Below the pieces are notes generated by a model that had not been told where the DNA came from, made no database searches, and saw only the letters and a program-made list of their open reading frames with translations. Below are positions 1 to 5,636 of a DNA stretch of 5,636 bases, in pieces. Both the position numbers and the translations under genes were made by a program. Source of the DNA: a virus; the IMG/VR virus record IMGVR_UViG_3300045988_033297, positions 1 through 5,636 of that record; one strand, 5' to 3'. Each line of letters begins with the position of its first letter. The first letter of the stretch is position 1.

Positions 1-99
1 GTTTTTTTTTTTTTGGTAAAATTGAACAAAAAGGAGGCGATATTGTGGACAACCGCTTTTAATCCGAACAGAAAAGAAATCATAAGAGTATACGTAGGA
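1..99. repeat. Terminal direct repeat, copy 1 (assembly overlap of a circular genome)
   Basis: Read by eye, 1-99 (G, T13, GGTAAAATTGAAC...GTATACGTAGGA) is identical to 5538-5636. The offset of 5,537 nt is the unit genome length. Confidence 0.9.
14..22 (+). promoter_or_regulatory. Possible extended -10 promoter element (TGGTAAAAT) for the 43-240 ORF
   Basis: TGGTAAAAT fits TGnTAnAAT and lies directly after the T13 tract, about 9 nt before the AAGGAGG RBS at 31-37. No convincing -35 is present in circular coordinates (TTGTGT at 5534-5539 leaves only a 14-nt spacer). Confidence 0.25.
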
Positions 100-240
100 G
101 TCGTAGAGATATGGGCGATCGAAGAACTGGCACAGGAGTACTTTGTAACGCAGGGACGAGTTATCCGGGACGCTATCAAAGTTGCTCTGAGGCACAAAGA
201 AGAGCTATACGAGCTGTTAAAGATGGATACAGAGATCTGA
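43..240 (+). CDS. Small ribbon-helix-helix-like DNA-binding protein (65 aa, TTG start)
   Basis: The ORF-track frame 13-240 has an in-frame TTG at 43, placed 5 nt after a strong AAGGAGG (31-37). The upstream TTG codons at 13 and 22 lie in or just after the terminator T-run and have no RBS. The sequence KEIIRVYVGVVEIWAIEELAQEYFVTQGRVIRDAIKVALRH fits a beta-strand/helix/turn/helix RHH pattern (ELA...G..IR.AI...L). Confidence 0.5.
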   Translation: MWTTAFNPNRKEIIRVYVGVVEIWAIEELAQEYFVTQGRVIRDAIKVALRHKEELYELLKMDTEI

Positions 241-347
241 AAAAAGCCAGAACACTCGGAGAAGCTGAAGCGATCATCCGTGAGATCTACGAAGCCAAAG
301 CAATCATCAACGAGGAGGAGCTAAAATGGCTAAAAGAGTCAAAATGA
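111..347 (+). CDS. Hypothetical protein (78 aa), possibly overprinted on the 43-240 ORF
   Basis: ATG at 111 follows AGGAG (96-100) with a 10-nt spacer. The C-terminal half (KKARTLGEAEAIIREIYEAKAIINEEELKWLKESK, nt 240-344) looks like a helical protein and covers 241-325, which no other frame explains. The N-terminal half (MGDRRTGTGVLCNAGTSYPGRYQSC) looks poor. Long chance alternative-frame ORFs do occur elsewhere in this genome. Confidence 0.25.
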   Translation: MGDRRTGTGVLCNAGTSYPGRYQSCSEAQRRAIRAVKDGYRDLKKARTLGEAEAIIREIYEAKAIINEEELKWLKESK

Positions 348-445
348 AGCCAAGGAAAGACCAGAAAGTCTTTTCCAACACAGCAAAGAAGACCAAATCC
401 ATCAACATCACGCCAAAAATCATGCGTGGTGGTACGAGACTGTAA
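326..445 (+). CDS. Small highly basic DNA-binding/packaging protein (gokushovirus ORF8-type, phiX174 J analogue), 39 aa
   Basis: Absent from the ORF track because it is too short. ATG at 326 lies 5 nt after GAGGAGGAG (312-320). The product is MAKRVKMKPRKDQKVFSNTAKKTKSINITPKIMRGGTRL, with 13 K/R and 1 acidic residue. The C-terminal MRGGxRL matches the conserved end of these proteins as I recall it. Stop TAA is at 443-445. Confidence 0.75.
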   Translation: MAKRVKMKPRKDQKVFSNTAKKTKSINITPKIMRGGTRL

Positions 446-458
446 AGGAGAAAAAACT

Positions 459-737
459 ATGATCCTGGAATACTATGCCATCAAAGACACCAAAGTCGCC
501 TTTATGAATCCGTTCATGCAGCACAACAAGGCAGAAGCCATCCGATCTTTCCGCAGCGTCCTGGCAGATGAACGCAGCGAGGCAGCCAAAAACCCGGCAG
601 ATTATGAACTCTGGTACGTTGGACAGTGGGACGACGCAACGGGCATCATGATGGGCGGTCAGCCGCAGTTTATCGAAAACGGAGTGGAGGGTTTGAAAAA
701 TGCCGAAAACCGAAGTGCACATCTGGAGTCGATTTGA
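459..737 (+). CDS. VP5: VP5-like nonstructural protein of Gokushovirinae (92 aa)
   Basis: This is ORF-track frame 426-737, but the ATG at 459 has AAGGAG (445-450) 8 nt upstream. The pattern Y.IKD.K...F..PF...N..EAIRSF......E.S....NP.DYELW.VG.WDD.TG matches the VP5 family pattern as I recall it. Confidence 0.8.
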   Translation: MILEYYAIKDTKVAFMNPFMQHNKAEAIRSFRSVLADERSEAAKNPADYELWYVGQWDDATGIMMGGQPQFIENGVEGLKNAENRSAHLESI

Positions 738-1206
738 TCGACCGGACACGATCCCAGCGCCAGAGGGCACCGGCACAGAGCCGGAGTACATGGAAGCGAT
801 CGACGAAAACGGTCACAAAACACTGAAAAAAACCGGAGAAACCGACACTTACGCCATGATCCAGGCGAGTCTGGAAGAAACCAAGATCGAGAACATCATC
901 AAACGAGCCACGCTGGGCGATCCGACCGCACTCACGCAGACAATGGGCGCATATATGGACACCACAGACATGCCAACAAGCCTGGCCGAGATGCAGAACG
1001 CCATTATCACGATCGAAAACGAATTCAACAAGCTGCCTCTCGAAACTCGTCTCAAGTTTAACCAAAGTGCAGAAAAATATATCTCTATGTACGGCTCTGA
1101 AGAATGGGCCAAAATCATGGGATATGAAAAAATTCAGCAAAATGCACAAACAAAAGCCTCAGCTGAGGCAGAGGAGATTGTGCAGAAAGGAGAAAATAAA
1201 GAATGA
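700..1206 (+). CDS. VP3: VP3 internal scaffolding protein (168 aa)
   Basis: GGAGG (686-690) lies 9 nt before the ATG. It sits immediately upstream of VP1. The sequence ...IENIIKR...GAYMDTTDMPTSLAEMQNAIITIENEFNKLPLETRLKFNQSAEKYISM... resembles the gokushovirus scaffold family. It overlaps VP5 by 38 nt and VP1 by ATGA. Confidence 0.85.
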   Translation: MPKTEVHIWSRFDRPDTIPAPEGTGTEPEYMEAIDENGHKTLKKTGETDTYAMIQASLEETKIENIIKRATLGDPTALTQTMGAYMDTTDMPTSLAEMQNAIITIENEFNKLPLETRLKFNQSAEKYISMYGSEEWAKIMGYEKIQQNAQTKASAEAEEIVQKGENKE

Positions 1207-2924
1207 ACCGAAATTCTGAAAGCCATTTCGCACAAATTCCACATGCAGACATCAGCCGATCGAAGTTCTACCGAAACTCAGACCATAAGACAACGTTCAA
1301 CGCCGGGCAGCTCATCCCGATCTACTGCGACGAAGTTCTGCCGGGAGACACACATCAGATGGACATGAGCGCACTGATCCGGATGAGCACACCGATCTTT
1401 CCGACCATGGACAATCTTTACTGCGATTTTTACTTTTTCTTCGTCCCAAACCGTCTCACCTGGATTCACTGGAAAGAATTCATGGGCGAAAACACACAGA
1501 GCTACTGGACACAACCGACTGAATACCAAATACCAGTCATTGACACAACAAAAAACAAAGAATCAAAAACAAATGGAATCGCAAACGGAAGCACCCTCGA
1601 CTACTTCGGAATACCAACCAAAACCAATGGGCTAAAAATCAATGCACTTCCACAAAGAGCATACCAACTGATCTGGAACGAATGGTTCAGAGATCAAAAC
1701 ATACAGCAGCCATGCGAAATCCCATTAGATGAAACAACAGTACATCAAGATGGAACAAGTACAGAAAAACATAACTCTGGACAACCATACAAATACTTCA
1801 TAACAGAATACGTCACATTAGCAAAAAGCGGATATGCATGCTTACCTGTCAACAAATATCACGACTACTTCACCAGCTGCCTGCCGCAACCGCAGAAAGG
1901 CGCAGCCGTTCTGCTGCCGATGAGCGGAAATGCAATCATAGGTTATGGAAACGCCGGAACCGGAAAGCTATACAACAACGAAGACTTTAATACACTCGGC
2001 TGGACCAGCACGGCAACCGGATGGAAACACGACATAAACGGAATGTCAGCAAACACAACAGCAACAAAAAACGACGGAAATATCGCATCAATCGGAACCT
2101 ATCCGACAGGAAGCGGAACAACAGAAGCAGTCAGCCTAATCGCAGACCTGGGCAAAGTCACAGGCGCAACGATCAATCAGCTCCGTCAGGCATTCCAGAT
2201 TCAGAAACTTCTGGAACGGGATGCACGAGGCGGCACAAGATACACCGAAATTCTGAAAGCACACTTCAACGTGACTTCTCCGGACTCTCGCCAGCAGCGA
2301 CCAGAGTATCTTGGTGGCTACAGAATGCCGATCAACATCACGCAGGTGGTACAGAACTCTGAAACCACAGCAACGAGTCCGCAGGGCAACACCGCAGCAT
2401 TTTCAGTAAGTGGCATGAACAAGTCAATGTTCACAAAAAGCTTTACTGAGCACGGATATATCATCGGTCTGGCAGCCGTCAGAACCGAGCATACTTACCA
2501 ACAGGGCATTGAACGCATGTGGAGCCGAAAAGGCAGATATGACTTCTACTGGCCGGAACTTGCGAATATCGGAGAACAAGCAGTGCTCAACAAAGAAATT
2601 TATGCACAGGGCACAGCGGCAGACGAAGAAGCGTTCGGCTACCAGGAGGCCTGGGCAGACTATCGGTACAAGCCGAGCCGAGTGTCAGGCGATATGCGGT
2701 CAAACTACAACCAGACGCTGGACAGCTGGCACTATGCCGACAACTACACAGAGCAACCAAAACTGTCGAGCACCTGGATGATGGAGACCATGAACAACAT
2801 CGACCGGACTCTTGCAGTTCAAAGCAGCGTAGAAGACCAGTTCATTGCAGACTTCTATTTCAAAGCACAGACCACAAGGCCGATGCCTGTCTACAGTGTA
2901 CCGGGCCTTATCGACCATCACTAA
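1203..2924 (+). CDS. VP1: VP1 major capsid protein (Microviridae F-protein family), 573 aa
   Basis: Hallmark N-terminus SHFAQIPHADISRSKF...HKTTFNAGQLIPIYCDEVLPGDT...MSTPIFPTMDNLYCDFYFFFVPNRL. Internal TINQLRQAFQIQKLLERDARGGTRYTEILKAHFNV. C-terminal RPMPVYSVPGLIDHH. Confidence 0.97.
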   Translation: MNRNSESHFAQIPHADISRSKFYRNSDHKTTFNAGQLIPIYCDEVLPGDTHQMDMSALIRMSTPIFPTMDNLYCDFYFFFVPNRLTWIHWKEFMGENTQSYWTQPTEYQIPVIDTTKNKESKTNGIANGSTLDYFGIPTKTNGLKINALPQRAYQLIWNEWFRDQNIQQPCEIPLDETTVHQDGTSTEKHNSGQPYKYFITEYVTLAKSGYACLPVNKYHDYFTSCLPQPQKGAAVLLPMSGNAIIGYGNAGTGKLYNNEDFNTLGWTSTATGWKHDINGMSANTTATKNDGNIASIGTYPTGSGTTEAVSLIADLGKVTGATINQLRQAFQIQKLLERDARGGTRYTEILKAHFNVTSPDSRQQRPEYLGGYRMPINITQVVQNSETTATSPQGNTAAFSVSGMNKSMFTKSFTEHGYIIGLAAVRTEHTYQQGIERMWSRKGRYDFYWPELANIGEQAVLNKEIYAQGTAADEEAFGYQEAWADYRYKPSRVSGDMRSNYNQTLDSWHYADNYTEQPKLSSTWMMETMNNIDRTLAVQSSVEDQFIADFYFKAQTTRPMPVYSVPGLIDHH

Positions 2925-2935
2925 TCGCCACAGAG

Positions 2936-2967
2936 GCGGCTCAGAGGCTCTCTGAGCCGCTTTTCTT
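2936..2967 (+). terminator. Rho-independent terminator after VP1
   Basis: GCGGCTCAGAG (2936-2946) pairs perfectly with CTCTGAGCCGC (2950-2960): an 11-bp GC-rich stem with a 3-nt loop, followed by TTTTCTT (2961-2967). Confidence 0.8.
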
Positions 2968-2984
2968 ATCAGGAGGAAAACTAT

Positions 2985-3821
2985 ATGGGACTCTTAGGAA
3001 CAATCGCCGGAATGGTGCTCCCAAACGTCATAAACTGGGGATTAGGACAAATCTTCGGAGGAGGAGCAAACAGCACAACCCAAGGAGCAAGCCATAGCCA
3101 GGGCGGCAGCACAACACAGAGCCAGAGCGGCACAAACGACCAATTCAATGCACAGCAAGCACAGCTCAACCGAGACTATCAGACCATGAGCCAGGCGATC
3201 CAGGGCAATTACAACATGAAAAGCATGATCATGAATATGGGCTACAACACCATGGGAGCCATCATGCAAGGCGTGTACAACGGAATCAGCCAAAAAGCAG
3301 CCATGAACTACAACTCAGCTGAAGCAGCAGCAAACAGAGCTTGGCAAACCGAAATGAGCAACACAGCCTATCAGAGAGCTGTGCAAGACTTAAAAGCCGC
3401 AGGACTTAACCCGATCTTAGCAGCACTTCACGGAGGAGCCGTCACAGGATCAGGAGCATACGGCAGCTCAGGAGCCAGCACGATCGGAGCACCAAGCACA
3501 AGCGCAGCAAGCATCTCAGCCATGCCAGGCACAGCAACACCAAGCAGCCAATGGAGCTGGTCAAAGGGTTCCAGCTGGAACGAAAGCACGGCCTATAACA
3601 TGGGCGAATCCGTAATGCGATACTATGCCGATCCAAACAACAGCGCAAAAAACCTCAAAGAAACAGGAGACAAAGTTGTAAAAGCCGGCAAAGAAGCAGG
3701 CGAGCAAATCAAAGACGCATACAAATACTCAAGCCCGGCAAACAAAATGAATCGCAACTCAGCAAACATCAACGGCAAAGGATATACAAGCCCAGGCAAC
3801 GGAGCAGGCAGAACAAAGTAA
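2985..3821 (+). CDS. VP2: VP2 DNA pilot / minor capsid protein (278 aa)
   Basis: AGGAGG (2971-2976) lies 8 nt before the ATG. It has a hydrophobic N-terminus (LLGTIAGMVLPNVINWGLGQIFGG), S/T/G/Q/N-rich low-complexity tracts, and the pilot-protein signature AWQTEMSNTAYQRAVQDLKAAGLNPILAA (nt 3339-3425). Confidence 0.9.
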   Translation: MGLLGTIAGMVLPNVINWGLGQIFGGGANSTTQGASHSQGGSTTQSQSGTNDQFNAQQAQLNRDYQTMSQAIQGNYNMKSMIMNMGYNTMGAIMQGVYNGISQKAAMNYNSAEAAANRAWQTEMSNTAYQRAVQDLKAAGLNPILAALHGGAVTGSGAYGSSGASTIGAPSTSAASISAMPGTATPSSQWSWSKGSSWNESTAYNMGESVMRYYADPNNSAKNLKETGDKVVKAGKEAGEQIKDAYKYSSPANKMNRNSANINGKGYTSPGNGAGRTK

Positions 3822-3850
3822 TTGACATACATCAAATAAAAGTGTATAAT
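3822..3850 (+). promoter_or_regulatory. Consensus sigma70/sigmaA promoter P1 (TTGACA-17 nt-TATAAT) for the RHH-rep unit
   Basis: TTGACA at 3822-3827, an exact 17-nt spacer, TATAAT at 3845-3850, with TG immediately 5' of the -10. It starts the nucleotide after the VP2 stop and is nearly identical to the block at 5286-5315. Confidence 0.8.
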
Positions 3851-3871
3851 AACGCATAGGAGGTGTATGTT

Positions 3872-4039
3872 ATGAAATGCACAGTAAGAAGAATCAATGT
3901 GAATCTCACAGAGAAAGAAAACGAAGCTCTCAAACGAACGGCAAAAGCCATGGGTGAAAAAGAAAGCGAGATCGTACGCAAAGCAATCATGAGTTTTACC
4001 AGCAATGGTAAAGATTTACAGGGAAATAATGGTCAGTAA
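3872..4039 (+). CDS. CopG/Arc/MetJ-type ribbon-helix-helix transcriptional regulator (55 aa)
   Basis: Absent from the ORF track. AGGAGG (3858-3863) lies 8 nt before the ATG at 3872; stop TAA is at 4037-4039. The product is MKCTVRRINVNLTEKENEALKRTAKAMGEKESEIVRKAIMSFTSNGKDLQGNNGQ. RINVNL (strand), EKENEALKRTAKAMG (helix A) and EKESEIVRKAIMSF (helix B) form a textbook RHH pattern. Confidence 0.75.
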   Translation: MKCTVRRINVNLTEKENEALKRTAKAMGEKESEIVRKAIMSFTSNGKDLQGNNGQ

Positions 4040-4065
4040 ATAGGAACCGTTCGCGGCATCGCTGT

Positions 4066-4107
4066 CACCTAGCCCCCTTACATCAAGTAGGGCTCGGGGG
4101 CTAGGTG
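4066..4107 (+). other. Perfect 12-bp GC-rich stem-loop between the RHH gene and rep (candidate origin or regulatory hairpin)
   Basis: CACCTAGCCCCC (4066-4077) is the exact reverse complement of GGGGGCTAGGTG (4096-4107). The 18-nt loop TTACATCAAGTAGGGCTC contains TACATCAA (4079-4086). There is no T-tract afterwards, so it is not a canonical terminator. The rep RBS begins 4 nt downstream. Confidence 0.7.
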
Positions 4108-4120
4108 CCAGGGGGAGGAG

Positions 4121-5161
4121 GTGAAGACCGATTTGGGCTGTAAATTTCCAATTGTGCAAGACACAAAAACAGGCAGATTTTTGAAAGAGTACGAGGGAAA
4201 ACTTTACTACAAGTGGAACGACTATGACGGTAAATCGACAAACGCAATCATCACAGATGAACGCTACCGTCTCATACCGTGCGGTAGGTGTACCGAGTGC
4301 CGATTAGCGTACTCGAGAGAGTGGGCAAACCGCTGTGTACTCGAATCACTACTCTACAAGTCGAACTGGTTCATAACACTGACTTACAACCCTGAGCAGA
4401 TTCCAACACTAAGGCTCGATACAGGTGAACTGTACAGAGGAGGTGTGCAAGAAGTACAAAATGGTAAAGTGTTAGTGTCTAACACACTGTTCCATGACGA
4501 TGTGCAAAAATTCCTCAAAAAACTGAGATTCCACCTCGCAAAGGCTGGAGAACCAGAAATCCGATACTACATGTGCGGAGAGTATGGCAGCACAACACAA
4601 CGGCCACACTACCACATGATCGTCTACAATCTGAATGTGCCTGATCTTGAGTTCTACAAGCTTAACGAACTACATCAACCTTACTTTCAAAGCGAATGGC
4701 TTGAAAAAATGTGGGGACATGGGTTTGTAACACTCGGAGAAGTAAACTGGAATACCTGCGCATACGTGGCAAGGTACATCATGAAAAAAGTGAAAGGAGA
4801 TAAAGCAGAAGAATTTTATAAAAGCATCGGAAAAACACCAGAATATACAAGAATGAGTTTAAAACCAGGAATAGGAGCAAAATACTATGAACTGAATAAA
4901 GAACAAATCTATAAATTTGATCAAATCATCATACCAGGAAAACAAGCAAAAAAAGTACAGCCATCAAAATATTTCGACAAGCTGTATGATATAGACAATC
5001 CAGAAAGGATGCAGGAAATCAAAAAAGCACGTGAAAAAAATGCACGCCTTGCTCAGCAGCTCAAATTAAGCAAAACCACAAAGGAACTGTGGGAACAGCT
5101 TAAAATAGAGCACGAAGCCAAACAAGACGCATACAAAAAACTTATAAGACCGCTAGAATAG
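4121..5161 (+). CDS. VP4: VP4 replication initiator, HUH rolling-circle endonuclease (346 aa from GTG 4121; alternative TTG start at 4133)
   Basis: RCR motif 1 is FITLTY (aa 84-89). HUH motif 2 is RPHYHMIVY (nt 4601-4627). Motif 3 is AYVARYIMKK with Tyr215 and Tyr219 (nt 4763-4777). A Cys cluster CGRCTEC lies at aa 54-60. The G-rich RBS GGGGGAGGAGG (4111-4121) abuts the GTG. A TTG at 4133 would give MGCKFP..., resembling the typical M.C..P N-terminus of VP4. Confidence 0.93.
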   Translation: MKTDLGCKFPIVQDTKTGRFLKEYEGKLYYKWNDYDGKSTNAIITDERYRLIPCGRCTECRLAYSREWANRCVLESLLYKSNWFITLTYNPEQIPTLRLDTGELYRGGVQEVQNGKVLVSNTLFHDDVQKFLKKLRFHLAKAGEPEIRYYMCGEYGSTTQRPHYHMIVYNLNVPDLEFYKLNELHQPYFQSEWLEKMWGHGFVTLGEVNWNTCAYVARYIMKKVKGDKAEEFYKSIGKTPEYTRMSLKPGIGAKYYELNKEQIYKFDQIIIPGKQAKKVQPSKYFDKLYDIDNPERMQEIKKAREKNARLAQQLKLSKTTKELWEQLKIEHEAKQDAYKKLIRPLE

Positions 5162-5168
5162 CTGAATA

Positions 5169-5212
5169 AGGGCGCAACACGGAATCTGACCTCCACGTTG
5201 CGCCCTGCTTTT
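5169..5212 (+). terminator. Probable terminator after rep (10-bp stem, large loop, short T-tract)
   Basis: AGGGCGCAAC (5169-5178) pairs with GTTGCGCCCT (5197-5206). The loop is 18 nt, followed by GCTTTT (5207-5212). The large loop and short T-run lower confidence. Confidence 0.45.
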
Positions 5213-5214
5213 CA

Positions 5215-5231
5215 TCGGCATCCAATGCCGA
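5215..5231 (+). other. Small perfect hairpin TCGGCAT-CCA-ATGCCGA
   Basis: 7-bp stem (5215-5221 with 5225-5231) and a 3-nt loop. It is nested inside an alternative pairing GCCCTGC (5202-5208) with GCAGGGC (5234-5240). Confidence 0.6.
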
Positions 5232-5246
5232 GCGCAGGGCCTACAG

Positions 5247-5263
5247 ATAAAATAGCATAAAAT
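5247..5263 (+). repeat. Tandem ATAAAAT-AGC-ATAAAAT (10-nt phase), UP-element-like A/T block upstream of P2
   Basis: ATAAAAT occurs at 5247-5253 and 5257-5263, one helical turn apart, 23-39 nt upstream of the -35 box at 5286. Confidence 0.4.
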
Positions 5264-5285
5264 GATGTATATTTCAAGAAAACAG

Positions 5286-5314
5286 TTGACATACATCAAA
5301 TCTAGATGTATAAT
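5286..5314 (+). promoter_or_regulatory. Consensus sigma70/sigmaA promoter P2 (TTGACA-17 nt-TATAAT) for the acidic small ORF
   Basis: TTGACA at 5286-5291, a 17-nt spacer, TATAAT at 5309-5314. The perfect 7-nt inverted repeat ATACATC (5291-5297) / GATGTAT (5305-5311) bridges the -35 and -10 boxes. Confidence 0.8.
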
Positions 5315-5340
5315 AGAATCAGAAAGAAAGGAGAATAACA

Positions 5341-5502
5341 ATGAAAAGTTACTATGAAGAACATGTAAAAGATTGTGCAGCAGCTCTTTACGACGGCGGA
5401 TGGAGAAGCACAGACAGAAACGAAATACAAAAAGAATACAACATGGACGATGAGTGGACAGATGCAATCTGCGAAGAACTAAAAAAATACGAACAACAAT
5501 AA
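5341..5502 (+). CDS. Acidic small protein of unknown function (53 aa)
   Basis: Absent from the ORF track. AAGGAG (5328-5333) lies 7 nt before the ATG at 5341; stop TAA is at 5500-5502. The product is MKSYYEEHVKDCAAALYDGGWRSTDRNEIQKEYNMDDEWTDAICEELKKYEQQ, with 14 D/E versus 7 K/R. It is flanked by its own consensus promoter and a strong terminator. Confidence 0.65.
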   Translation: MKSYYEEHVKDCAAALYDGGWRSTDRNEIQKEYNMDDEWTDAICEELKKYEQQ

Positions 5503-5511
5503 GAATACTAC

Positions 5512-5551
5512 AAAACACAGGACAAAAAAAGTCTTGTGTTTTTTTTTTTTT
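5512..5551 (+). terminator. Strong rho-independent terminator (stem, A7 loop, T13 tail)
   Basis: CACAGGAC (5516-5523) pairs with GTCTTGTG (5531-5538): 8 bp with one G-U. The loop is A7 (5524-5530). The flanking A-run (5512-5515) can extend the stem. T13 lies at 5539-5551 and is duplicated at 2-14. Confidence 0.85.
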
Positions 5552-5636
5552 GGTAAAATTGAACAAAAAGGAGGCGATATTGTGGACAACCGCTTTTAAT
5601 CCGAACAGAAAAGAAATCATAAGAGTATACGTAGGA
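5538..5636. repeat. Terminal direct repeat, copy 2 (same sequence as 1-99)
   Basis: Identical to 1-99 by eye. It contains a duplicate of the RBS and the first 19 codons of the 43-240 ORF (5580-5636), which is an artefact of linearisation and not a second gene. Confidence 0.9.

Follow-up and report, generated by a model that had tools for sequence, protein, structure and literature searches.

A conserved stem-loop upstream of rep as a candidate viral-strand replication origin, inverted relative to the genes, in a gokushovirus genome

The DNA analysed here, 5,636 nucleotides (nt) of the IMG/VR virus record IMGVR_UViG_3300045988_033297 (positions 1 to 5,636; hereafter the window is this whole stretch), is a complete-looking gokushovirus genome in which every gene lies on the + strand. 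Its subject is the GC-rich hairpin at 4066-4107, located between a small ribbon-helix-helix (RHH)-like gene and rep, the gene of the replication initiator VP4. Judged by analogy with phiX174, this hairpin is rather likely to be the viral-strand rolling-circle replication origin of the phage, with the minus strand as the nick strand. The genes and the parts of the element are the following:

426-737, + strand: VP5
700-1206, + strand: VP3
1203-2924, + strand: VP1
2985-3821, + strand: VP2
3822-3850, + strand: promoter of the RHH-rep unit, with a perfect sigma-70 consensus (12/12 hexamer positions) and the operator-like inverted repeat ATACATC...GTGTAT
3872-4039, + strand: small RHH-like gene, with weak matches to DUF6290 (E = 3e-4, which misses the cut-off) and to the transcriptional repressor family phrog_876
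4061-4067, - strand: conserved box, GCTGTCA in the window, consensus GGTGTCA, which is TGACACC on the proposed nick strand; putative Rep binding ('key') site
4066-4077: 5' arm of the stem, CACCTAGCCCCC, perfect over 12 bp and covarying
4078-4095, - strand: loop, TTACATCAAGTAGGGCTC (- strand GAGCCCTACTTGATGTAA), 18 nt, its 3' part variable
4078-4087, within the loop: conserved loop core, TTACATCAAG in + strand reading
4083-4084, - strand: CTTG^ATG, the predicted nick site of Rep, which falls between the complements of 4084 and 4083 and is placed by analogy with phiX174
4096-4107: 3' arm of the stem, GGGGGCTAGGTG, which, extended by 4108-4111, repeats the box region in inverted form, CTAGGTGCCAG
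4116-4135, + strand: rep translation signals, namely the Shine-Dalgarno sequence AGGAGGTG (4116-4123), a 9-nt spacer and the TTG start codon (4133-4135)
4133-5161, + strand: VP4/Rep, replication initiator, an HUH endonuclease with two tyrosines (PF23343, phrog_942), the presumed enzyme acting on the hairpin

The two arms, which pair perfectly over 12 bp, are the longest perfect inverted repeat in the window and extend to 16-nt arms (4062-4077/4096-4111) with one mismatch. Among 1500 simulations of the window with a first-order Markov model, 0.9% gave a stem of at least 12 bp with a loop of 3-40 nt; the hairpin is confirmed as real and unlikely to occur by chance. As DNA it folds stably on both strands, at -18.9 kcal/mol (z = -2.9) on the + strand and at -19.7 kcal/mol (z = -3.7) on the - strand, where none of 200 shuffles was as good and the loop is fully unpaired. 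As RNA it reaches -37 kcal/mol with a z of only -2.1, and the rep Shine-Dalgarno sequence is not sequestered in the minimum free energy (MFE) structure. Downstream of the stem there is no T-tract in either direction (+ strand CCAGGGGGAGG, - strand ACAGCGATGCC), the hairpin is absent from the list produced by the terminator scan, and the Rfam 15 covariance models gave no match to 4040-4125 even at E <= 1. The original prediction had described a flawless 12-bp stem with an 18-nt loop and no T-tract, and the coordinates, the repeat search, the terminator scan and the DNA folds that it proposed as a check bear this out. Its distance of 3 nt between the stem and the ribosome-binding site is corrected to 8 nt. 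It had also pointed to an alternative pairing of AGCCC with GGGCT inside the structure; this pairing is present in the window, and its 3' partner is altered in relatives (G4090A in L002, GGGTG in L003, AGGTG in L011; L numbers denote contigs), so the pairing is rejected, a shifted version not having been tested.

Megablast of the whole window against GenBank returned short VP1 matches only, and a distant blastn search of 3840-4180 against GenBank phages gave no match; relatives were gathered through Rep, from contigs that code for its nearest homologues. The order small gene, hairpin and rep is common to all close relatives (Rep 60-94% identical), whose loop always starts with TTACATCAAGTA and has an invariant core. 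Conversely, the stem changes by compensation, with a C>T matched by a G>A in L011 and CACCTAG>CAGTCAG accompanied by a matching 3' arm in L012, while the 3' arm in L003, L005 and L011 is CTAGGTGACA, the perfect complement of the box. The 15-mer TTACATCAAGTARGG matches at least 120 IMG/VR contigs, many of them microvirus contigs of 4-5.5 kb, and the GGTGTCA-stem-loop-stem context is found in most microvirus-sized contigs among the matches listed. Specifically, this context consists of GGTGTCA, five semi-conserved bases, a variable stem, (G/A)TTAC-ATCAAGTA(A/G)GG and the complementary arm, and a 50-nt consensus of the element matches 433 GenBank phage records.

A covariance model (R1) was then run on samples selected by Rep, which avoids the bias of the motif-selected sample. 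Of the 77 viral contigs about 70 gave a hit, and of the 80 metagenome contigs about 60, with the element usually 250-350 nt ahead of where the VP4 match begins. Diverged copies are present in several of the loci missed by R1 and in the isolate SpV4, and the isolate phiMH2K (L136, around 3290-3340) carries a core with one mismatch, TTACAACAAG, and a diverged box, TGTGAGT, in the usual orientation. Among the distinct elements of the Rep-selected set, the box GGTGTCA is found in 46/52 and the core TTACATCAAG in 37/52, the remainder being variants of one to three bases, and the distance from box to core is 18 nt in 46/52 and 19 nt in 6/52; the 3' half of the loop is free to vary in sequence and length. 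Over 90 distinct elements, 86% of the stem cells are paired and double changes occur in 10 of the 11 pairs, against none of 500 shuffles reaching the observed value and 27-42% for slid controls, all counted, shuffles and slid controls included, on an alignment made with the covariance model (A5) that leans towards the model structure. A MAFFT alignment (A2) was set aside, the right arms of the window clade being one column out of register. The covariation check suggested in the original prediction therefore comes out in favour of the stem. By its sequence and structure, the hairpin is one copy of a bipartite element common to most gokushoviruses.

The place of the element relative to rep varies. 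In two inverted groups, L133 (KX513877; 956-1014) and L152-L158, it lies directly after the VP4 stop codon rather than upstream, and therefore its position relative to rep is not fixed. This bears on the possibility that the hairpin acts at the RNA level on rep, as an attenuator, an mRNA stabiliser, an antisense target or a translational modulator before the Shine-Dalgarno sequence. The hairpin does lie within a unit that runs from the promoter at 3822-3850 to the terminator-like hairpin at 5169-5206, it ends 8 nt before a perfect Shine-Dalgarno sequence that serves a weak TTG start, its RNA fold is stable at the energy given above, and the RHH-then-rep layout recalls the copG-repB arrangement of pMV158. 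Yet the T-tract is absent, the terminator scan does not call the hairpin, the loop is 18 nt long, the Shine-Dalgarno sequence is free in the MFE structure and the RNA z-score is modest; furthermore, the element is found in either orientation, whether 250-350 nt ahead of the VP4 match or downstream of it, and also without the RHH gene. Given this freedom of orientation and position, the invariance of the loop is not explained by local control of the rep mRNA. RNA-level control is thus very improbable as the role of the element, and the attenuator, antisense-target and translational-control readings raised in the original prediction fall with it, although a secondary effect of the hairpin on rep expression is possible in the window clade.

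Read on the opposite strand, the element becomes 5'-stem-...ACTTGATGTAA-stem-(CTAGG)TGACACC-3', that is CTTG^ATGTAA...(+18)GACACC, and in this form it resembles the phiX174 origin (NC_001422; nt 4299-4328, cut by the gene A protein). The latter reads CAACTTG^ATATTAATAACACTATAGACCACC, with ATATTAATAAC after the nick and the rep_origin annotated at A4306, and the ACTTGAT in the - strand of the window loop, CCCTACTTGATGTAA, is identical to phiX174 4300-4306 plus T4307. Counted from the putative nick, GAC falls at +18 to +20 in the window, in 46/52 elements, in SpV4 and in phiX174 (GACCACC), and the coding strand of SpV4 as deposited reads TTACTTG^TTATAATATGCCCCATTGACGAC, with the same arrangement of nick word and box. 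In the work of Baas and Jansz, the GACCAC stretch of phiX174 is the binding 'key'. The double-strand origin (dso) of phiX174 is made of a binding site plus a nick site (PMC5714925), the same bipartite logic as here. The enzymes agree as well: VP4 matches PF23343 at E = 3e-21 (76 bits) and phrog_942, a replication initiation protein family; its H163, H165, Y215 and Y219 are invariant across 45 homologues; and its RPHYHMIVYN and AYVARYIMKK align with RLHFHAVHF and FYVAKYVNKK of phiX174 protein A (hhalign, profile alignment), which also matches PF23343. Moreover, gokushovirus and bullavirus Reps are considered monophyletic (PMC6668415).

The reading as a rolling-circle origin is supported because nick word and spacing match phiX174 and because VP4 has the HUH and YVA(R/K)Y motifs of protein A, and it is the one best supported by the comparative evidence. 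The fixed spacing of two conserved words across a freely covarying sequence is what is expected of a single protein contacting both. The leading idea of the original prediction, an origin served by rep, gains from the invariant loop core, the covarying stem, the box at a fixed distance, the phiX174-like nick word and spacing, and an orientation that goes with strand composition. Of the models on which that prediction drew, hairpin display next to rep holds, and the nick words of CRESS-DNA viruses and pMV158 do not. Both of these have, like the window, a conserved nick sequence in the loop of a covarying GC-rich stem by rep; CRESS-DNA origins carry the nonanucleotide NANTATT^AC and the pMV158 dso the nick word TACTACG/AC. 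In the window, the nonanucleotide NANTATTAC is absent, TATTAC is in neither loop strand (TTACATCAAGTAGGGCTC, GAGCCCTACTTGATGTAA) and the pMV158 nick word is absent from the element; binding sites in the form of direct repeats, as in pMV158, were not searched for. Unlike in either, the gokushovirus Rep is a two-tyrosine enzyme of the phiX174 A family, and the box stands outside the stem-loop core at a fixed distance. A CTTG^ATA-type nick core recognised by an HUH Rep is also known from the dso of the pC194/pUB110 type, which differs in its Rep_1 family initiator (PF01446) and in a surrounding sequence that is not comparable; the element is not claimed as a member of that type. A terminator, the CRESS nonanucleotide and a dif site were tried and rejected as identities of the hairpin, and an RHH operator was rejected as the reason for the conservation of the loop.

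Another function at the DNA level would be that of a complementary-strand (minus) origin, in which the hairpin on the packaged single-stranded DNA (ssDNA) recruits the host primosome, primase or RNA polymerase for conversion to the replicative form (RF). Such origins are exemplified by the n' site of phiX174, the G4 origin and the single-strand origins of plasmids, and a stable hairpin on ssDNA of either strand would suit the task. The hairpins before Rep in the reekeekee- and roodoodooviruses are alike by description, being intergenic, with an identical loop in divergent genomes and compensatory stem changes, and for them a complementary-strand role alone has been proposed, unconfirmed (PMC9865509). 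These are other microvirus clades, however, and neither a phiX174-like nick/binding pattern nor a change of orientation has been reported for them. A near-invariant 10-nt core and a 7-nt box at a fixed spacing are unexpected for a host-factor signal across diverse hosts, and the invariance across Spiroplasma and Bdellovibrio isolates and across gut and other metagenomes points to a reader encoded by the virus, not by the host. Furthermore, the conserved words and their spacing match the viral-strand origin of phiX174 and not its n' site, and no second conserved non-coding element was noticed that could serve as an alternative Rep origin, no systematic search having been made. A complementary-strand origin is on this account the less likely role, yet a serious rival.

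A viral-strand origin has a polarity, and that of the window is unusual. In the samples oriented by Rep, about 85% of the elements have CTTGAT on the coding strand, as do SpV4 and phiMH2K, whereas in the window and its whole clade the coding strand reads TTACATCAAG and CTTGAT lies on the minus strand. The same inversion is found in KX513877, the L152-159 clade, L190, L149, L055, L021/L037, L043/L115, L035/L026 and L107, further in L217, L218, L222, L226, L230 and L266, and in diverged form, on the non-coding strand, in L153, L159, L270, L272 and L273. By a conservative criterion, and on trees that are quick neighbour-joining or nearest-neighbour analyses, at least 10 separate lineages are inverted, that of the window included.

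In the window clade and its sister clade from the gut, the long stem includes the box, which is consequently present on both arms (GTCACCTAG...CTAGGTGAC). On the coding strand, L085 (129-187, usual orientation) and L005 (3733-3791, window orientation) share identical 20-nt arms, GTCACCTAGCCCCATTAC/GTAATGGGGCTAGGTGAC, and differ only by an inversion of the loop, CCTTACTTGAT versus ATCAAGTAGGG; despite the identical stems, their VP1 matches to the window are only 49% (L085) and 76% (L005) identical. This pair suggests that the loop flips through the inverted repeat or that origin modules are exchanged. On the branch of the window, the loop alone was probably flipped via the 20-bp palindromic stem with a binding box on both arms, since after an inversion between inverted repeats the new nick strand again has the box at +18. 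Other inverted lineages, such as L055 and L021, carry the box on a single side, and therefore the whole module was inverted in them.

A function that requires ssDNA is specific to one strand, which was the reason to ask what else flips with the element; its orientation goes together with the composition of the strands. Phages with ssDNA are T-rich on the packaged strand, especially at third positions, with an average of 30% T, which is attributed to C>T deamination (PMC3278643, PMC4032129). The + strand of the window has 36.6% A and 17.5% T, with an A-T skew at fourfold sites of about +0.5, so that its coding strand is opposite to this T-richness and its complement has the typical T excess. 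The first skew test was made on motif-selected, biased contigs and was repeated on two Rep-selected samples and by lineage. At the fourfold sites of VP1 and VP4, A exceeds T in 37/38 genomes of window-like orientation (mean skew at these sites, AT4, +0.51) and in 27/174 of usual orientation (mean -0.40); in an independent metagenome sample this holds for 9/9 inverted versus 3/50 usual genomes. By lineage, the A-T skew of 8/10 inverted ones differs by +0.5 to +1.4 from that of the closest non-inverted relative, the exceptions being L107 and L026. Pairs of inverted and usual genomes are near mirror images in their fourfold-site composition, L133 likewise, as the following frequencies illustrate:

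Window clade (inverted): A 0.39, C 0.23, G 0.24, T 0.13
Sister clade of the window (usual): A 0.11, C 0.22, G 0.13, T 0.55
L055 (inverted): A 0.49, C 0.31, G 0.14, T 0.06
Neighbours of L055 (usual): A 0.07, C 0.21, G 0.22, T 0.51

As a rule, the strand carrying CTTGAT is the T-rich strand, whichever way the genes face, which is expected if the element defines the strand that is displaced and packaged. The composition thus suggests that the minus strand is the packaged one in the window. The GC skew at third positions does not separate the orientation classes, being about -0.2 in both (-0.08 versus -0.18 in a second comparison), and because only the A/T asymmetry separates them, an explanation by deamination is incomplete.

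The orientation data also speak to a role of the hairpin as a double-stranded DNA (dsDNA) site for a protein unconnected with nicking, such as an operator of the RHH protein or a dif-like XerC/D site for lysogeny. Inverted repeats are typical of operators, a dsDNA site would fit the independence of orientation, the presumed RHH operator in both promoters of the window (ATACATCAA...TTGATGTAT) has the loop word ACATCAA, and dif motifs exist in some gokushoviruses (PMC7062461). Conversely, hundreds of genomes that have neither the RHH gene nor the promoter palindrome carry the element, and its arms covary freely instead of being conserved in sequence. A dif site is about 28 bp long, with two conserved 11-bp arms around a centre of 6-8 bp; the element has a spacer of 10-18 nt and does not resemble dif in sequence. 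Moreover, a dsDNA site gives no reason for the orientation to track the strand composition, and this role is scarcely credible.

A further possibility retains the origin and leaves its polarity unchanged: VP4 would nick the loop of the plus strand, for example near TTAC/ATCAAG, the plus strand would be packaged, as in every microvirus characterised so far, and the resemblance to phiX174 would be coincidental. In its favour, the nick strand is not fixed by experiment, and microvirus curation assumes a single gene direction and implicitly genes in viral-strand sense for all microviruses (PMC9239249). However, most gokushoviruses, SpV4 and phiMH2K among them, would then have to nick the non-coding strand, or else the enzyme would read opposite strands in different lineages; in addition, the mirrored composition at fourfold sites would be left unexplained, and the match of ACTTGAT plus GAC(+18) to phiX174 sits on the other strand. 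An origin of unchanged polarity is accordingly quite unlikely.

Several observations, together with that curation practice, weigh against an inverted viral-strand origin. The composition rule has exceptions both ways, in the inverted L107 and L026, which are not A-rich, and in the 27 A-rich genomes of usual orientation; the isolate phiMH2K likewise combines the usual orientation with an A-rich coding strand (AT-skew at third positions, AT3, +0.33), as unchanged polarity would allow. The coupling of orientation and composition is predicted equally by a complementary-strand origin. In phiX174 the origin lacks a hairpin and is located within gene A, with an AT-rich spacer in the place of the stem, while in the gokushovirus element the spacer is an arm of a covarying GC-rich stem and is intergenic. 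In phiX174 the nick strand is the gene-sense strand, and in the window the strand with CTTGAT is antisense to all genes, so that of the properties of a phiX174-type origin the two-tyrosine HUH initiator, the nick word and the second box at a fixed distance are found here, and the gene-sense nick strand is not. Searches with a fuzzy motif, the covariance model and regular expressions retrieved no recognisable copy in Chp2. Part of the loop invariance in the first sample is due to motif-based selection, which the Rep-selected sets correct. Finally, all the evidence is comparative, and binding and nicking are argued by analogy only.

With these points taken into account, a viral-strand origin on the minus strand would operate as follows. 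On supercoiled RF DNA the inverted repeat would extrude or melt, and VP4 would contact the box (TGACAGC in the window, consensus TGACACC) and cut the loop at CTTG^ATG, 18 nt upstream of the box on the same (minus) strand. VP4 would stay linked to the 5' end while the 3'-OH primes displacement synthesis, which would proceed in the direction of decreasing window coordinates, opposite to transcription. Once a round is completed, the regenerated site would be cut by the second tyrosine, and the minus strand would be circularised and packaged. The structure of the hairpin, its conservation, covariation and spacing, the homology of Rep, the inversion and the mirrored composition are observed; the binding and cutting by VP4 at the hairpin, the exact position of the nick and the packaging of the minus strand are what we infer from them. 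In general terms, the origin of gokushoviruses would be defined by CTTG^ATGTAA in a loop and TGACACC at +17 to +23 (GAC at +18 to +20); the window phage and at least nine other lineages would be 'negative-sense' microviruses, in which the strand that is nicked, displaced and encapsidated complements the mRNA sense; and T-richness driven by deamination would have built up on the non-coding strand of the inverted lineages. The chances that these three propositions hold jointly appear evenly balanced.

In the literature searched, neither the motif nor a gokushovirus origin or a change of its orientation is described, work on Chp2, SpV4 and phiMH2K in subscription journals having been out of reach. 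The element looks like a very widespread and previously undescribed one that adds hairpin display to a phiX174-like logic. A model made of a nick word, a binding box, a fixed spacing and a covarying stem makes the gokushovirus origin testable by a nicking assay with one oligonucleotide and, if true, would be its first sequence definition. Moreover, the element provides a consistent landmark by which metagenomic microvirus genomes, in their thousands, can be linearised, oriented and annotated, and its orientation calls into question whether the genes of microviruses invariably have viral-strand sense, as is assumed. If the packaging of the antisense strand is true, strand-specific virome libraries and studies of codon usage and mutation bias in ssDNA phages would have to be reinterpreted, replication would run head-on against transcription in the inverted phages, and microviruses would offer a natural experiment on the influence of the single-stranded state on genome composition.

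Some features of the element and its surroundings were noted in passing. Two identical copies lie about one genome length apart in L166, L208, L187, L205, L048, L050, L130, L237 and L264, and these contigs are likely concatemeric assemblies of circular genomes and not real duplications. A second GC-rich hairpin with a T-run, for example CGGCCTATTCGGCCG CCTTTT, is often found 3' of the element (L023, L029, L047 and many contigs of usual orientation). It lies on the 3' side in the orientation of the model and is terminator-like on the strand antisense to the genes; the inverted L021 and L055 have a GC hairpin on the same side of the element as well. This hairpin may belong to the same replication module, for example as a complementary-strand origin. 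The 7-mer ACATCAA occurs six times on the + strand of the window and never on the - strand (sites include 1742-1750, 3766 and 4672). At 1742-1750, inside VP1, the 9-mer TACATCAAG is identical to the origin core (- strand CTTGATGTA), and this copy may either serve Rep as a secondary recognition site or have arisen by chance, the genome being A-rich.

As regards the genes next to the hairpin, rep starts at TTG 4133 and not at GTG 4121, as judged by homology (ATG and MGCKFPIV in L011; TTG and LSCKFP in L003 and L012), and the RHH-like gene starts at ATG 3872, behind the Shine-Dalgarno sequence AGGAGGTG at 3858-3865, and not at GTG 3863. The N-terminus of the product of 3872-4039, KRINVNLTEKENEALKRTA, resembles a ribbon-helix-helix. 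The RHH-like gene occurs in the window clade only and does not belong to the conserved element; all clade relatives have a small gene at this position, in versions of 55-72 aa, and L012 has two. In the copG-repB operon of pMV158, an RHH repressor gene is followed by rep, and the window is alike in having a small RHH-like gene before rep and a strong promoter with a palindrome; this resemblance, which concerns the neighbouring gene and not the hairpin, is taken as a lead only.

A second perfect (12/12) sigma-70 promoter is located at 5286-5314, and TTGACATACATCAAAT is common to both promoters. Both have the inverted repeat ATACATC...G(A/T)GTAT between the -35 and -10 elements, which is probably the RHH operator, and the promoter half-site ACATCAA equals the core of the origin loop. 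TTGACATACATCAA is kept in the clade relatives, as a perfect 10-bp palindrome in L011 and L012, and its occurrence in promoter context is restricted to the RHH-bearing window clade. Elsewhere, within one mismatch, it turns up in long phage contigs, at 8 sites that look like chance occurrences, and within the VP1 match of L028, and none of these off-promoter sites is followed by a -10 hexamer.

Neither an antisense RNA nor a promoter was found opposite the intergenic region upstream of rep. On the - strand, an open reading frame (ORF) of 155 aa (5153-5620), which overlaps the second promoter, is without a match in Pfam or PHROG, and relatives have short + strand genes there; it is probably an artefact of composition, because a T-rich strand is poor in stop codons. 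Lastly, three other hairpins are present in the window: at 5169-5206, with 15-nt arms directly after the rep stop codon followed by GCTTTTC, terminator-like for the RHH-rep unit; at 2936-2960, after VP1, with a perfect 11-bp stem and a 3-nt loop followed by TTTTC; and at 5512-5555, downstream of a 53-aa ORF (5341-5502), with an AT-rich stem followed by a run of 13 T.

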